IMG/VR virus record: IMGVR_UViG_3300035180_001680
DNA from: a virus
Taxonomy: Duplodnaviria > Caudoviricetes
DNA length: 64,000 bases
Direction: 5' to 3' (one strand)
Numbering within the stretch: the stretch's first letter is position 1; every line of letters starts with the position of its first letter. Positions 33,806-53,858 of this stretch are shown in pieces. The translations under genes and the position numbers were made by a program. Under the pieces are notes generated by a model. It ran no database searches. It was not told where the DNA came from and saw nothing but the letters and a program-made list of their open reading frames with translations.

Positions 33806-34966
33806 TTATACACCTATGTGTGGAGTATATATTTCTCCACCAATTTTTACATTAATTTGATGAATTTCTTCTACACTTAAGTCCATTGATTCACTGTGAT
33901 CCCAATAATTTTGGACACCTCGTGATATAACAACCAGTTTAGTTTTTTCAACATTCGTGGTGTTTATTGATACTAATTGAAATCTGGCTCCTGTATACCC
34001 AAATGCTGGTTTGATAGCGTAATATTGCCTTGTGATAAAAATAGGAATACGGAATTTTTCATAAAATTCTTGAACGCGTTCCTTTCCAACGGGTTGGAAT
34101 ATAACTTCTATATTATTTCGCTTAACTGGTTTATCCGTGATAAAATACACAAGTGTATAACGATCTTTTTCAATAAAAAGGTTTAATTCTTTTAAGGGAG
34201 GCTGCTTTGGTGTTTGGATTTTTGTAATAATTTCTGAAACGCTTAAATCAGAATAAAATTCAAAAACCGGATCACCCTTTTTAATGTTATTATAGTTCCA
34301 TACGTTAGTTGGGTCAACGATTCGTTTTATACAGAACTTTCGTTTTACGTTACACAAATCTGTGGTGGACATACGGCCTGATTTCTCGTCTGTGGAAACC
34401 AAATTATATGCACCGACGTATTCACATTCTAATCCACTGTGAAGTAAAATAATATCACCGATGTTAATATCTTTAATTGGGACTCGCGTCTTAACACGTT
34501 TTGTGTTCACTATAGCTTGTTCGTATGGTTCTGAATTAATTGGAAGTAAAACATTTTGAGCTTTATCTCTACCCCAAACACACTCCATCTTGATTTCACC
34601 GTTTTCTATGGTCGTGCAGTCAATAATTTTTGCAAAGTTTGACGAAGAAATTTCTAATTCGAATCCACGAGGGTCGACGATTCTCCAAACAACATTTCCT
34701 CCACCCCAATAAACACGGCGAACACTTTCTGCAATCTTAAAACCTGCTACAGGTGTGTTGTTAATAATAACGGGGTTTATAGAATCAGGTGTGGTTCCCC
34801 GGGTATTGAAGTTTGCCCACCTGTCAACAGTCTCTTTTCTTTTTTCGTATGCTTTCGTTCCTGGTTCGTGTGGAGTAGCAAATCCAAGAGGCAAAGACGA
34901 TTCGGCTTTATGTTGTTGTTTTAAACCTACATAAAATTGGTCGGGAATTTTAATTGAGATGCTCAT
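33806..34966 (-). CDS. Hypothetical protein
   Basis: 386-aa ORF, IVDPRGFELEISSSN. Confidence 0.75.
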   Translation of the reverse strand: MSISIKIPDQFYVGLKQQHKAESSLPLGFATPHEPGTKAYEKRKETVDRWANFNTRGTTPDSINPVIINNTPVAGFKIAESVRRVYWGGGNVVWRIVDPRGFELEISSSNFAKIIDCTTIENGEIKMECVWGRDKAQNVLLPINSEPYEQAIVNTKRVKTRVPIKDINIGDIILLHSGLECEYVGAYNLVSTDEKSGRMSTTDLCNVKRKFCIKRIVDPTNVWNYNNIKKGDPVFEFYSDLSVSEIITKIQTPKQPPLKELNLFIEKDRYTLVYFITDKPVKRNNIEVIFQPVGKERVQEFYEKFRIPIFITRQYYAIKPAFGYTGARFQLVSINTTNVEKTKLVVISRGVQNYWDHSESMDLSVEEIHQINVKIGGEIYTPHIGV

Positions 34967-42139: not shown

Positions 42140-42784
42140 CTAATCAATCCCAACGATTTTTTCAATTTCAACCCGAACGCGTTCGGCTGCGACACTGGTG
42201 TATGCTTCGTTGAACATTTCTCGACAAGCCTTTAAAGATTTCGGGTCTGGAGTAAATCCACGGCCAACAAATCTGTAAAAACGGATTACCCTCAAGTAGT
42301 CTTCTTTGATACGGTCTTTGGGTTTTCCAACAAAACGTAACGTTCTCGTTTTAATATCGTCCATTCCCATACCAGTTGGGTCAATAAGCTCCATCGTTTT
42401 GGTGTTAATGTATAATGCGTTTACGGTAAAATCGCGACGGTGAGCATCATCATCGATTGTTCCCAATTCAACTTCCGCGTGGCGACCATCACATACCACA
42501 TCTTTTCGGAAATTGCTGACTTCAACGGTATAACTACTGAAATGGACGTTAAGCACAAAGTGTGCGACACCAGTCAAAGACACTTCAAATCCACCGTCTT
42601 CAAACAGTTCGATTAACCGTTTCATTGGGATATCCGTAACGATGTCGTAATCATTTGGAGTTTTTTCCATCAACAAATCACGAGTCGCTCCCCCCACAAC
42701 GTAATTGTTGTCAGAAAATGCGTTTAGTACTGTAATAATTGGGAATAACTTAATTGGGCACGTTCTTTTAAAATCAATTTTCAT
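42140..42784 (-). CDS. cca: Class II tRNA nucleotidyltransferase (CCA-adding/poly(A) polymerase family), short form
   Basis: VVGGATRD..DYDI, RRDFTVNALY, EDYLRVIRFYRF, ERV. Confidence 0.85.
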   Translation of the reverse strand: MKIDFKRTCPIKLFPIITVLNAFSDNNYVVGGATRDLLMEKTPNDYDIVTDIPMKRLIELFEDGGFEVSLTGVAHFVLNVHFSSYTVEVSNFRKDVVCDGRHAEVELGTIDDDAHRRDFTVNALYINTKTMELIDPTGMGMDDIKTRTLRFVGKPKDRIKEDYLRVIRFYRFVGRGFTPDPKSLKACREMFNEAYTSVAAERVRVEIEKIVGID

Positions 42785-43100
42785 CAAAGATCCTTTTTGC
42801 AGCAAAATCCAGTGTTGATAATAAAACTGGTAATGTAGTATCAAGAACACGTATACCTTGTTGTAACCAGTGTAGTATCGTGTGTTGTTCGTAAGATGTT
42901 GTGGGTATTGGTTTAATTCGTTCTGTTAATAAAAGTTGTTGATCCATATCAAGAGACGCGTTAGTCTCTTTGAGAACACAACCAATAAAGGCCCGTGCTG
43001 CCCAAGGATGGGCTTCAACGATTGTTTCTACAAAACCGGGTGTGAACGTAAGAATTTTACGCCCTGGTGTTTTTGATTTTCGTAATGTGTGGGTTTTCAT
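42774..43100 (-). CDS. Hypothetical protein
   Basis: ORF. Confidence 0.5.
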   Translation of the reverse strand: MKTHTLRKSKTPGRKILTFTPGFVETIVEAHPWAARAFIGCVLKETNASLDMDQQLLLTERIKPIPTTSYEQHTILHWLQQGIRVLDTTLPVLLSTLDFAAKRIFDEN

Positions 43101-45366: not shown

Positions 45367-45936
45367 TTATATTTGATATGTTAATTTTGGTAATCCTTGA
45401 TGGGAAAAATCCACGTTTAGTAGGTTACAAGCCCGAGCGTGGTGTTCCAATGTCAAGCCAATCTCATACTGTATATAAAGTAGATGTGATTCAATATCAG
45501 GTATTAATATGGAAGCAGACGGACTTATTAAGTCAGGGTCATCATCAACGATGATGAAATTGTCAACATAATGAACATCCAACCAACGTTTTATTTCTTC
45601 AGTTCTCCCACCATCACCGGCTCTTGGTGTGTGCCAATTTTGGTGTAACTGAATTTTCAAATTGTTGTTTTTGAATGTCAGTTCAATTTGTTCTCGAGAC
45701 GCATAATGAAACCAGTTTGATGAAATAACTCCAACAACATCATTGTTCTCTGTCCACACGTTAAAGAAACTGACGGCAATTGGGTCAAATTTAACAATGT
45801 TGTGTAAATCCTTGTGTCCAAAGGGATGATTTCCAGATTTTCGGGATTCATTTAAAAGTTGAATATTTTCAGGTAGACACCAAGCTCTACGTGGAAGTAG
45901 TGGTCCGTCGATGTCTATAAATATGATTTGTGACAT
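45367..45936 (-). CDS. HAD phosphatase (RNA-repair HAD type)
   Basis: IFIDIDGPL, ISSNW, IIVDDD. Confidence 0.8.
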   Translation of the reverse strand: MSQIIFIDIDGPLLPRRAWCLPENIQLLNESRKSGNHPFGHKDLHNIVKFDPIAVSFFNVWTENNDVVGVISSNWFHYASREQIELTFKNNNLKIQLHQNWHTPRAGDGGRTEEIKRWLDVHYVDNFIIVDDDPDLISPSASILIPDIESHLLYIQYEIGLTLEHHARACNLLNVDFSHQGLPKLTYQI

Positions 45937-47210: not shown

Positions 47211-47783
47211 ATGAAGAAAACAGTTTTGGACACGACTGTCCACAGTTTATCATTAGCATTAAAGGAACGGGACATCGTTACAGGACTTCATTCTGAACGA
47301 GTGTGTGAACTTGCGAGATTATTAGCACAAGAACTTAAGATTACAAACAAGGATTTTCATGTTCTTAAAATGGGGGCATGTTTTCATGACATTGGAAAAA
47401 TAGGGATACCTGATAGTATTTTATTAAAAACATCTTCATTAACTGAAAAAGAGTGGGAGAAGATGAAAACCCATACAGTTATTGGTCAACAGATTGTCAA
47501 TGCTTTGGGTGTTGAAGGGTGTATTGAAGCAGGAACAATTGTTCGGCATCATCACGAATGGTTTAACGGGGAAGGATACCCCGACCAACTCGTTGGTAAG
47601 GATATCCCGCTAAATTCCCGAATTGTTAGTATAGTTGACGCATATGATGCTTTAGTATCTCATAGAACGTACCATTGTTCATTGACACACGAAGAAGCAA
47701 TTGAAACCTTAAAAACAGAAACTGGAACTAAATTCGATCCTGAAATAATGAAGGTGTTTTTATCAATTACAAAACCGTCTTAA
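47211..47783 (+). CDS. Stand-alone HD-GYP cyclic-dinucleotide phosphodiesterase
   Basis: HSERV, HDIGK, HHEWFNGEGYP, RIVSIVDAYDAL. Confidence 0.92.
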   Translation: MKKTVLDTTVHSLSLALKERDIVTGLHSERVCELARLLAQELKITNKDFHVLKMGACFHDIGKIGIPDSILLKTSSLTEKEWEKMKTHTVIGQQIVNALGVEGCIEAGTIVRHHHEWFNGEGYPDQLVGKDIPLNSRIVSIVDAYDALVSHRTYHCSLTHEEAIETLKTETGTKFDPEIMKVFLSITKPS

Positions 47784-47960: not shown

Positions 47961-48599
47961 TTAATCAGGTTTCCAAATAGGGTCAATTAGAACTAACTGG
48001 GGACCAACAGAAGTTAACCTTGCCATAATGTTTCCTGAATGTAAGTCTAAATCTGCTATAGTACCATACGTGCGTAAGAAATTAACAACTTCTTCAAATT
48101 GAGCATTGCGCTCAATTTTTTTGTTAACAATAGCATCATGATAATAATTAATCAATTGACTCGTTGCAAGACTTTTGGCAAACTGTTCACTCATTCCGAG
48201 TGCCTGAAGTTGGTGAGAAATAGCATCTTTAATTTTAGGAGAATTTAATGGTAATAATTTTTCCATGTCAACAACTCCTGTATTATCATAAACAGAATCT
48301 ATTCTGTTGATGTATATATCAAACTCTTTCCGATACAGACGAATTTTATAAATTCGAGGTAAAAAGGGGTTATTTTGGTGTTTTTGAATAAACCGCAGGA
48401 ATTGAAGATACCCATCTTCTTCTGTGTTAAAACCAAAGACTTTTGTTACCACTCCAGGCTTCTTTATTCTATCAACTACAACAGCCTGAAGGCCAGCTCC
48501 AAGGCGTTTTAATGAATCTGTGTCTGTGTAACCATTTCTAACTTTAACACTATCAGATTTTCGAAGAGCTTCTCCTCCGATAATTTCAAATAACTTCAT
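47961..48599 (-). CDS. Protein-kinase-like fold protein
   Basis: LGAGLQAVV..VTKV, LPRIY, DMEKL, DLHSGNIM, LIDP. Confidence 0.75.
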   Translation of the reverse strand: MKLFEIIGGEALRKSDSVKVRNGYTDTDSLKRLGAGLQAVVVDRIKKPGVVTKVFGFNTEEDGYLQFLRFIQKHQNNPFLPRIYKIRLYRKEFDIYINRIDSVYDNTGVVDMEKLLPLNSPKIKDAISHQLQALGMSEQFAKSLATSQLINYYHDAIVNKKIERNAQFEEVVNFLRTYGTIADLDLHSGNIMARLTSVGPQLVLIDPIWKPD

Positions 48600-48720: not shown

Positions 48721-48804
48721 TGGTCCACCCGGAGGGATTCGAACCCTCATAGTCAAAGACGCGAGATTAAAAGTCTCGTACCGTACCAGTTCGGTGTCGG
48801 ATGG
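48721..48804 (-). tRNA. tRNA-Lys(TTT) with 13-nt variable arm
   Basis: CCATCCG/CGGGTGG acceptor, loop CTTTTAA, variable arm CGTCTTTGACTAT, encoded CCA. Confidence 0.85.
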
Positions 48805-48809
48805 AAATA

Positions 48810-48883
48810 TGGTACACCGCCACGGTATTGAGCCGTGTTCTACAGGGTAAGAGCCTATTGCATCACCTTAATGCTTGCGGTGC
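48810..48883 (-). tRNA. tRNA-Lys(CTT)
   Basis: Loop CTCTTAC, encoded CCA. Confidence 0.8.
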
Positions 48884-48892
48884 ATTATATTT

Positions 48893-48967
48893 TGGTAGGG
48901 CGCCTGGAATTCGAATCCAGCCTAAAAGATTAAAAGTCTTCTGTGCTTCCGCTGACACTAACACCCC
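48893..48967 (-). tRNA. tRNA-Lys(TTT)
   Basis: Loop CTTTTAA, short variable loop, encoded CCA. Confidence 0.88.
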
Positions 48968-48982
48968 ATTAAATTCCACTTG

Positions 48983-49067
48983 CTCCGGTCCGAGGAATCG
49001 AACCTCGCCTCCTTTCGGAGCCTTCGCATTAACAGTGCGAGACCTTCACCAAGCCAGTCCGACCGGA
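48983..49067 (-). tRNA. tRNA-Asn(GTT) with 16-nt variable arm
   Basis: Loop CTGTTAA, variable stem CTCC-GAAA-GGAG, G73, no encoded CCA. Confidence 0.85.
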
Positions 49068-49080
49068 GCAAGTGAAACTT

Positions 49081-49154
49081 TGGTAGTCCCTAGAAGAATT
49101 GAACTTCTGTATCTGCCATGTCACGACAGCACTCTACCATTGAGTTAAGGGACT
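49081..49154 (-). tRNA. tRNA-Val(GAC)
   Basis: CTGTC-GTGACAT-GGCAG, encoded CCA. Confidence 0.8.
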
Positions 49155-49174
49155 ATTAAATTTTTAAAGAACAT

Positions 49175-49208
49175 AAAAAAAGCCTCGGGAGATTTCTCTG
49201 CCGAGGCC
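49175..49208 (-). terminator. Attenuator terminator of tRNA array 1
   Basis: GCCTCGG..CCGAGGC followed by T7; 5' arm complementary to GCCGAGGC in the leader ORF. Confidence 0.85.
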
Positions 49209-49227
49209 TATTAACTTTTGTTTACTT

Positions 49228-49329
49228 TCAGATGATTAGTTTGATTTCAACAGTCAATGCCTCGGCGTGTGAACGTTTATTATTAACGTTTACATTATTG
49301 ATAAAAATTGGTTTAGTTGAATCGAACAT
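49228..49329 (-). CDS. Putative leader peptide 1, MFDSTKPIFINNVNVNNKRSHAEALTVEIKLII
   Basis: 33-codon ORF between promoter and terminator; Asn/Val/Lys run. Confidence 0.75.
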   Translation of the reverse strand: MFDSTKPIFINNVNVNNKRSHAEALTVEIKLII

Positions 49330-53773: not shown

Positions 53774-53858
53774 TGGTACCACCGGTTGGAATCGAACCAA
53801 CTTTGAGGTTTCCCTCCAGGATTATCGGTCCTGTGCCTAACCTATCGGCCACAGTGGT
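53774..53858 (-). tRNA. tRNA-Ile(GAT) with 15-nt variable arm and C33
   Basis: CAGGA-CCGATAA-TCCTG, variable stem GAGG-GAAA-CCTC, A73, encoded CCA. Confidence 0.82.

Follow-up and report, generated by a model that had tools for sequence, protein, structure and literature searches.

In the textbook account, the transfer RNAs (tRNAs) of bacteria that carry a long variable arm are only those for serine (Ser), leucine (Leu), tyrosine (Tyr) and selenocysteine (Sec). The gene described here is a tRNA-Asn(GUU) with such an arm, located in a stretch of 64,000 nucleotides (nt) of a virus of the Caudoviricetes (IMG/VR record IMGVR_UViG_3300035180_001680), and this whole stretch is called the window below. 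The window corresponds to bases 65549-129548 of the 178,796-base-pair (bp) record, read on the reverse strand, and the completeness of the record is 52% (CheckV). The gene is a genuine asparagine-type (Asn-type) tRNA gene of this giant uncultured phage, and its body is class-II-like: the D stem has 3 bp, the D loop has 11 nt, and the variable arm forms a hairpin. Observed directly are the gene itself and its fold, the conservation and covariation of its sequence, the Asn-type acceptor end and the surrounding context; in terms of function, the gene is quite probably a working phage asparagine tRNA of a widespread class, in which the identity elements of Asn are placed on a class-II-like body.

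Among the described systems, the nearest in design are the tRNA-Asn genes of T5 and T5-like phages and of T4-like Aeromonas, Klebsiella and Cronobacter phages, which likewise have the anticodon GUU, G73, a GAAA-capped arm and a place in a phage tRNA cluster. The gene in the T5 record (LR597659.1, T5_ev212; 34162-34244) has 83 nt and the arm GUC-GAAA-GAC, and is the sole tRNA-Asn in the tRNA region. In T5 tRNA-Asn the first pair is G1-C72, the D stem has 4 bp, the arm has 3 bp, and the CCA end is encoded; in the window copy the first pair is U1-A72, G8G9 is present, the D stem has 3 bp and the arm 4 bp, CCA is lacking, and leader and trailer extend the acceptor by 13 bp. The two cannot be aligned by BLAST. 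With the canonical class-I tRNA-Asn (PMC9976931), the window tRNA shares three identity elements, the 7/5 acceptor/T branch and the loop CUGUUAA; it differs in having a hairpin variable region of 17 nt (not about 5 nt), the 3-bp D stem, G8/G14, and C15 with G48. The allo-tRNAs (PMC5389517), some of which occur in phages, also combine a long arm and G73 with an anticodon other than those of Ser, Leu or Tyr, but they have an 8/4 or 9/3 branch, a Sec-like D arm and Ser (or alanine, Ala) identity, whereas the window tRNA has a 7/5 branch and an Asn-type acceptor.

Two further systems are comparable in part. In Streptomyces coelicolor, type I and type II tRNA-Leu are charged by one leucyl-tRNA synthetase (PMC6614811); likewise, the presence of the arm varies within one identity, but the direction is the opposite one (arm loss) and the amino acid is another. 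Bacterial precursor ribosomal RNA (pre-rRNA) is matured via leader-trailer helices that are cut by RNase III (PMC10250234), and these are likewise duplexes of about two helical turns enclosing the mature RNA, but they are known for rRNA and not for single tRNAs.

Gene, cloverleaf and conserved subfamily

ARAGORN finds 42 tRNA genes in the record, of which 19 lie in the window, all on its minus strand. The only tRNA-Asn in the 179 kilobases (kb) at hand is the long-arm copy at 48983..49067. For this gene the ARAGORN call spans 48982-49067 (minus strand, 86 nt); C74 is encoded at 48982, and C75-A76 are not encoded. The parts of the gene are as follows.

48983..49067, minus strand: tRNA-Asn(GUU), from U1 to G73 (ARAGORN, sequence, covariation in 26 homologues)
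49031..49033, minus strand: anticodon GUU within the loop CUGUUAA (ARAGORN, sequence)
49008..49024, minus strand: variable region AAGG-CUCC-GAAA-GGAG-G, 17 nt (sequence; homologue covariation)
49020-49009, minus strand: stem of the variable arm, 4 bp, with a GAAA loop (sequence)

The acceptor stem UCCGGUC/GACCGGA has 7 bp and is followed by G8 G9 and then by the 3-bp D stem ACU/GGU (A10-U, C11-G and U12.G), whose 11-nt loop GGCUUGGUGAA includes G18G19; C26 stands after the D stem, and C15 is present together with G48. The anticodon stem is UCGCA/UGCGA with the loop CUGUUAA, and the T arm is CGAGG-UUCGAUU-CCUCG. After G73 the sequence continues with CAAG, that is, the CCA end is not encoded. 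A sequence-only reading had taken the gene for a tRNA(GUU) with a long variable arm, with G73 and without an encoded CCA; all of this holds: the cloverleaf is intact, and the 4-bp GAAA-capped arm and the two features of the 3' end are read from the sequence. This tRNA has none of the marks of a class-I body, that is, neither a short variable loop nor a 4-bp D stem nor U8/A14 nor a gathering score with the Rfam model RF00005, and BLAST of the tRNA array against cultured phages gives no match to the Asn gene itself. Contigs over the region reveal a strain variant in which the arm-stem pair C51-G56 becomes U.G.

The subfamily of the gene was collected with a pattern based on the anticodon loop and the T arm, which matches 6 viral and 29 metagenome loci; with the window copy, the set amounts to 26 distinct sequences (84-90 nt), which align from end to end at a mean column identity of 80%. 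Their common formula is UCC...GG-3-bp D stem-GGCUNGGYGAA...arm...CGAGGUUCGAAUCCUCG. Invariant or nearly so are U1, G8, G9, C11, G13, G14, C15, U16, G18 and G19, as well as the anticodon loop, the arm base and the T arm, and the invariance of the T arm, including all five pairs of its 5-bp stem, is partly forced by the search pattern. Across the 26 sequences, 98.4% of the structure cells hold standard pairs, and 17 of the 24 pairs change on both sides. No slid register and none of 500 shuffles approaches these pairing and covariation values, so that the fold is not a product of chance. In the stem of the variable arm, 100% of the cells are paired and three of the four pairs change on both sides, with the compensatory forms CUCC/GGAG, CCCC/GGGG, GCAA/UUGC, CACC/GGUG and CCCG/CGGG; the three pairs of the D stem vary yet stay paired, two of them changing on both sides and one on one side. 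At the acceptor end, U1-A72 is found in 25 of the sequences, C2-G71 in 21 and C3-G70 in 23, while GUU is invariant and G73 nearly invariant (at least 90% of rows). Twenty members encode G73-CCA, with ends GGA-G-CCA and no pairing of the leader. Since the CCA of these homologues stands directly after G73 and the leader is unpaired, the mature acceptor stem has 7 bp, which rules out a Sec-like or allo-tRNA branch.

As for the spread of the design, a looser pattern with long spacing (ACTGTTAAT, 16-40 bases, GGTTCGANTCC) matches at least 120 IMG/VR loci, and an ARAGORN tRNA-Asn of 80-94 nt is called in about 110 of 120 loci among the matches listed. When the spacing is opened to canonical lengths, which gives a length-unbiased sample, the long kind makes up about 15 of 119 loci (about 13%). 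BLAST of two long-arm genes against cultured phages gives 584 and 713 records, which are T5-like and have Escherichia, Salmonella, Klebsiella and others as hosts; a third query gives 50 records of T4-like Aeromonas and Stenotrophomonas phages. In most of the matched records the gene is annotated plainly as tRNA-Asn. Long-arm tRNA-Asn is a common, little-discussed phage design that is present, largely unremarked, in hundreds of sequenced phages including T5, and the window gene is one more copy of it. In the literature search, no paper was found on long-arm tRNA-Asn in phages or on leader-trailer helices of tRNAs, the T5 tRNA papers of the 1980s lying outside that search. When the neighbouring kinase-like protein was used as an anchor, only distant relatives were obtained, one of them with a tRNA array, in which the tRNA-Asn is canonical.

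The design also occurs outside phages. In one-genome-per-species bacterial assemblies, the looser pattern gives at least 120 matches, and long tRNA-Asn calls account for 53 of the 120 listed; many of these 53 lie in dense arrays of tRNA genes, with a canonical chromosomal copy beside them. The two tRNA-Asn copies found in a Solirubrobacterales genome both have the long arm (GUCC-GAAA-GGAC), and no canonical copy was matched. One bacterial order thus seems to use long-arm tRNA-Asn as its housekeeping species. The textbook rule on long arms often fails in phages, for about one in eight phage tRNA-Asn and for some tRNAs of threonine (Thr), isoleucine (Ile), lysine (Lys), cysteine (Cys) and methionine (Met), and at least one order of bacteria is a further exception. 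A single chromosomal tRNA-Asn of 84-85 nt was observed in each of eight Solirubrobacterales and related assemblies (L312, L301, L315, L316, L318, L358, L363 and L384), with a 4-bp arm that is GAAA-capped in seven of the eight.

Amino-acid identity and its alternatives

In bacteria, the determinants of Asn identity are the anticodon and G73, and U1-A72 marks tRNA-Asn for GatCAB (PMC9976931). This set (GUU, G73 and U1-A72) is completely present in the window tRNA. In a comparison of the acceptor ends of 127 unique long-arm tRNA(GUU), 124 ordinary phage tRNA-Asn and 123 phage tRNA-Ser, U1 occurs in 77% of the long-arm tRNA(GUU) and 74% of the ordinary tRNA-Asn, and G73 in 89% and 87%, respectively. 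The T5 tRNAs for Lys, Thr and Asn jointly rescue E. coli cells from the toxicity of PARIS/AriB, by which growth and phage infection are restored, and the paper on this rescue (PMC12409363) makes no mention of the long arm. A sole tRNA-Asn that was charged well by seryl-tRNA synthetase (SerRS) would recode all Asn codons, and so the cases of T5 and Solirubrobacterales argue, indirectly, that an arm of this size is compatible with Asn identity.

The alternative that survives best is Ser or dual identity, according to which SerRS would accept the tRNA by its long arm and G73, and Ser, alone or mixed with Asn, would be inserted by the phage at AAY codons. For SerRS, the two elements cited most often are G73 and an arm with a stem-loop, and in the window tRNA the hairpin arm, G73, C11-G24, the 3-bp D stem and the 11-nt D loop ending in GGUGAA do resemble those of class-II tRNAs. 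The nearest relatives within this phage are tRNA-Leu genes (identity 0.67-0.69 against a mean of 0.60), which fits the same direction; as a guide to the origin of the body, these pairwise identities were tried and set aside as too weak to decide. The sharing between tRNA-Cys(GCA) and tRNA-Ser(UGA), at 0.73, indicates that bodies and anticodons recombine in this genome, and E. coli serylates allo-tRNAs whose anticodons are not those of Ser (PMC5389517). However, phage tRNA-Ser has G1 in 85% of cases and a GGA start in 76%, and the Ser-type acceptor pairs G1-C72 and G2-C71 are not in the window tRNA, which has conserved U1-A72, C2-G71 and C3-G70 instead. The arm stem has 4 bp and those of long-arm tRNA(GUU) in general mostly 3-4 bp, versus 5-6 bp in phage tRNA-Ser, and the same design is the only tRNA-Asn in T5 and in the Solirubrobacterales genome, where efficient serylation would recode every Asn. 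Moreover, an arm alone does not give Ser identity, as tRNA-Leu and tRNA-Tyr have arms without it. Ser or dual identity is therefore unlikely, and the ambiguous charging put forward in the sequence-only reading does not stand up well against an acceptor end that is Asn-type and conserved, a 4-bp arm stem and the service of the design as sole tRNA-Asn elsewhere. The window tRNA most likely still carries asparagine, and the gene gives no pointer to a recoding event.

Another alternative is that the product is not an adaptor but a tRNA-like RNA, such as a nuclease decoy or inhibitor or a regulatory RNA, with the long helix as part of the mature molecule. The lack of CCA, the 20-bp helix described below, the oddities at G8/G14 and a score under the Rfam threshold would all suit such an RNA; in addition, the AriB paper raised some over-expressed viral tRNAs as possible inhibitors (PMC12409363), and some allo-tRNAs are seemingly inactive in translation. 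It is nevertheless improbable, because 20 subfamily members encode G73-CCA and have no helix, every hallmark of a tRNA is preserved, from the U33-GUU-A37 loop and G18G19 to the T loop UUCGAUU, the gene is the only Asn tRNA in the 179 kb at hand, its operon is gated by Asn codons, and a CCA-adding enzyme is encoded nearby. Finally, a Sec-like or allo-tRNA fold (9/4, 8/4 or 9/3) with a sense anticodon, in which G-2 would pair with C74 and C-1 with G73 in a longer mature acceptor, has very little probability: the best Rfam match of the gene is indeed tRNA-Sec (RF01852), aligned over 9 + 4 bp, and the flanks do pair, but the match reaches 33 bits under a gathering cut-off of 47, the D arm is not a 6-bp stem with a tetraloop and the D stem has mismatches, the anticodon is GUU and not UCA, CCA follows right after G73 of a 7-bp stem in the CCA-bearing homologues with unpaired leaders, and the T stem has 5 bp, all invariant in the subfamily (partly forced by the pattern).

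Several points weigh against a functional asparagine tRNA. G8/G14 stand in place of the near-universal U8/A14, and the Rfam tRNA model RF00005 does not call the gene at gathering or permissive thresholds. The part of the genome at hand is 52%, and a canonical tRNA-Asn or a dedicated synthetase may lie in the remainder. The sequencing runs listed as containing the region are four sediment or microbial-mat DNA runs, none of them RNA. The 20-bp precursor helix could hinder RNase P, one natural strain variant has a C.A mismatch in the leader-trailer helix, and some low-level serylation may take place, given G73 and the arm. As for synthetases, the class II cores PF00152 and PF00587 have no match in the 179-kb record (52% of the genome), nor in five records with subfamily members, all of which are fragments; in these sequences no class IIb synthetase-like gene was seen directly upstream of the tRNA.

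Precursor helix and missing CCA

The flanks of the tRNA-Asn contribute 13 consecutive pairs, 11 Watson-Crick and 2 G.U, which form a continuous 20-bp helix with the acceptor stem. The two added strands are the following.

49068..49080, minus strand: 5' leader AAGUUUCACUUGC, the entire 13-nt Val-Asn spacer, paired with the trailer (sequence, pairing measurement)
48971..48983, minus strand: G73-C74 and the 11-base trailer AAGUGGAAUUU, paired with the leader (sequence, pairing measurement)

The precursor of 119 nt folds at -59.1 kcal/mol (z = -6.4), and none of 200 shuffles is equally stable. That the flanks lengthen the acceptor stem had been noticed in the sequence-only reading, and the extension is real; the length given there, 10 bp (3 added pairs), has to be replaced by 20 bp (13 added pairs). 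Within the subfamily, the window copy and one other member (L277) both lack CCA and have exactly 13 extra pairs each, formed by unrelated sequences.

Helices of this kind were measured in 2,149 phage tRNA calls as the uninterrupted pairing of the leader with the bases after position 72. Extra pairs numbering 11-19 are found in 24 of these calls: Asn 13, Pro(UGG) 5, Met 2, Gln 2, Arg 1 and Asp 1 (proline, glutamine, arginine and aspartate being Pro, Gln, Arg and Asp). After the removal of duplicates, extensions of at least 8 bp occur in 19 of 972 CCA-less genes versus 1 of 1,051 CCA-bearing genes (Fisher p = 1e-5). All 20 genes with such an extension keep C74, and 17 of them start with U or C, compared with 30% of the other CCA-less genes; the extension lengths peak at 12-13 bp. 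The helix sequences differ completely between phages, so the property that is conserved is the pairing. In this phage, CCA is encoded by nearly all of the 41 other tRNAs, and another gene without it, the 75-nt tRNA-Pro(UGG) (C1:61192-61266, outside the window), has a 12-bp helix, GGAUUCGUUUGU / ACAAACGAAUUC.

A parallel is provided by Aeromonas phage phiAS5, in which a 12-kb locus (L401, HM452126.1 189781-201856) holds 23 ARAGORN tRNA calls, three of them without CCA, and leader-trailer helices of 12-14 bp are present in exactly these three (Arg-UCU, the long-arm Asn and Met-CAU). The CCA-less tRNAs of T4 have no such leader-trailer helix, and T4 tRNA processing was for this reason rejected as a model for it. 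It may be added that phiAS5 is a cultured T4-like phage and tractable for probing helix-linked maturation.

Helices of 11-19 bp are thus almost confined to CCA-less phage tRNAs, which suggests a separate maturation route, and the link between missing CCA and the leader-trailer helix looks new. The combination of a missing CCA and a covarying helix of about 13 bp offers a clean clue to how tRNAs are processed in cells infected by phages. RNase III accepts duplexes of about 20 bp, and by analogy with pre-rRNA the tRNA helix could be handled by this enzyme.

Operon, nuclease defence and other tRNAs

The tRNA-Asn gene is surrounded by the following features.

49228..49329, minus strand: 33-codon leader peptide MFDSTKPIFINNVNVNNKRSHAEALTVEIKLII, with the run INNVNVNNK (Asn, valine (Val) and Lys codons)
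49173..49215, minus strand: terminator hairpin GGCCUCGGCAGAGAAAUCUCCCGAGGCU, GC-rich, then a U run
49081..49154, minus strand: tRNA-Val(GAC), first gene of the array (ARAGORN, Rfam)
48721..48967, minus strand: three tRNA-Lys downstream, namely UUU (75 nt), CUU (74 nt) and UUU (84 nt, with an enlarged variable region)
47961-48599, minus strand: protein matching the PHROG of T7 gp0.7 kinase
47211-47783, plus strand: stand-alone HD_5 protein
45367-45936, minus strand: HAD_SAK_2 domain protein (RNA-repair 'Swiss Army Knife' type)
42140..42850, minus strand: tRNA nucleotidyltransferase, CCA-adding type (PF01743, 102 bits; PHROG 2244, E = 1.4e-42)

The Asn-rich leader reported earlier is borne out, with MFDSTKPIFINNVNVNNKRSHAEALTVEIKLII at 49329-49228 and the terminator hairpin with its U run after it. 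A segment GCCGAGGC inside the leader open reading frame, upstream, can compete for the terminator pairing, and the terminator aligns to the terminator part of Rfam His_leader with 28 bits, under its cut-off. The leader fits an operon that relieves slow decoding of Asn, Val and Lys codons, and it is silent on the amino acid that is charged. From its position behind the Asn/Val/Lys leader peptide, the tRNA-Asn very likely supplies AAY decoding, in agreement with the earlier suggestion of an Asn supply. Among the neighbours, the nucleotidyltransferase could complete the CCA-less tRNA-Asn. In T7, the gp0.7 kinase stimulates RNase III. An Rnl2-type RNA ligase is encoded elsewhere in the record; the RNA-ligase search found no match to RtcB, and none to T4 Rnl1, for which the control genomes gave none either.

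In the proposed mechanism, the tRNA-Asn would be transcribed as the second gene of a Val-Asn-Lys-Lys-Lys operon, which the leader-peptide attenuator would open when AAY, GUN and AAA codons are read slowly. In the precursor, the two spacers flanking the tRNA would pair into the 20-bp stem; this stem would then be removed, and C75-A76 would be added by the phage or host nucleotidyltransferase. Finally, the tRNA would be charged by the host asparaginyl-tRNA synthetase, or by a non-discriminating aspartyl-tRNA synthetase together with GatCAB, and would read AAC and AAU.

The most economical idea of the role of the arm is that it may impede host nucleases whose cuts fall close to the anticodon stem of tRNAs. 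In E. coli, AriB acts on tRNA-Lys(UUU), Thr(UGU) and Asn(GUU), and its cut falls between positions 40 and 41, that is, three bases from where the arm emerges; AriB also needs contacts distal to the anticodon loop. In the phage sample, the class-I tRNAs in which long arms are most frequent are Asn(GUU), Ile(UAU), Cys(GCA), Thr(UGU), Met/Ile(CAU) and Lys, and the arm-bearing tRNA-Thr(UGU) of T5 (L246, LR597659.1 16023-16109; 87 nt, 3-bp D stem, arm in the form of a hairpin) counts in favour of the idea. However, the relation is a correlation, T5 tRNA-Lys escapes AriB by two substitutions and not by an arm, and long arms are also found in the Cys, Trp (tryptophan) and Gln tRNAs of the sample, none of them a known target of AriB. 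Should the arm indeed block defence nucleases, a structural route would be added to the known escape of tRNAs by point mutation.

The helix and the arm can also be joined in one broader proposal, which as a single claim is doubtful. The duplex of about 20 bp would mark a maturation route peculiar to some of the CCA-less phage tRNAs, most of which begin with U or C (Asn, Gln, Pro, Met and Arg); release would be by a double-strand-specific nuclease (host RNase III or a phage enzyme) and not directly by RNase P; the phage CCA-adding enzyme would finish the tRNA, and the phage would control the timing of maturation; and the arm near positions 40-41 would make Asn, Thr and Lys tRNAs poor substrates of AriB-type nucleases, which they would thereby evade.

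The tRNA-Asn is not the only unusual tRNA of this phage. A GAAA-capped variable arm and a 3-bp D stem are also present in tRNA-Ile(GAU) (53774-53858, minus strand, 85 nt) and, outside the window, in tRNA-Cys(GCA) (C1:37520-37605, 86 nt) and the glutamate (Glu) tRNA, tRNA-Glu(UUC) (C1:61582-61668, 87 nt). These Ile, Cys and Glu tRNAs all encode CCA, and their discriminator bases suit the anticodons, being A73 in Ile and U73 in Cys. tRNA-Cys(GCA) and tRNA-Ser(UGA) (C1:51011-51098) have the anticodon stem, the arm and the T arm in common, and the identity of the two is 0.73 versus a mean of 0.60 ± 0.04 over all phage tRNA pairs, as if tRNA-Cys(GCA) had been rebuilt from a Ser tRNA.

Enlarged variable regions are found in two tRNA-Lys, one tRNA-Ala and one tRNA-Asp of the record, each kept in addition to an ordinary copy: tRNA-Lys(UUU) has 75 nt at 48893-48967 and 84 nt at 48721-48804 (both minus strand), tRNA-Lys(CUU) has 74 and 84 nt (the latter at C1:38559-38642), tRNA-Asp(GUC) has 75 and 80 nt, and tRNA-Ala(UGC) has 74 and 80 nt. 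The 80-nt tRNA-Asp and tRNA-Ala share an odd D arm, GGGACUGC(A/U)UGGCGUGGUC. A tRNA with the anticodon CUA, of the amber suppressor type and labelled Pyl by ARAGORN, lies at C1:46568-46641, outside the window, and is a hint that some of the phage genes may use TAG as a sense codon. Changes in the opposite sense are found as well: 37% of phage tRNA-Leu calls (loci L002-L279) have a short variable region, for example the 77-nt tRNA-Leu(UAG) in this phage and in T5, and phages therefore shift the class of their tRNAs in both directions.

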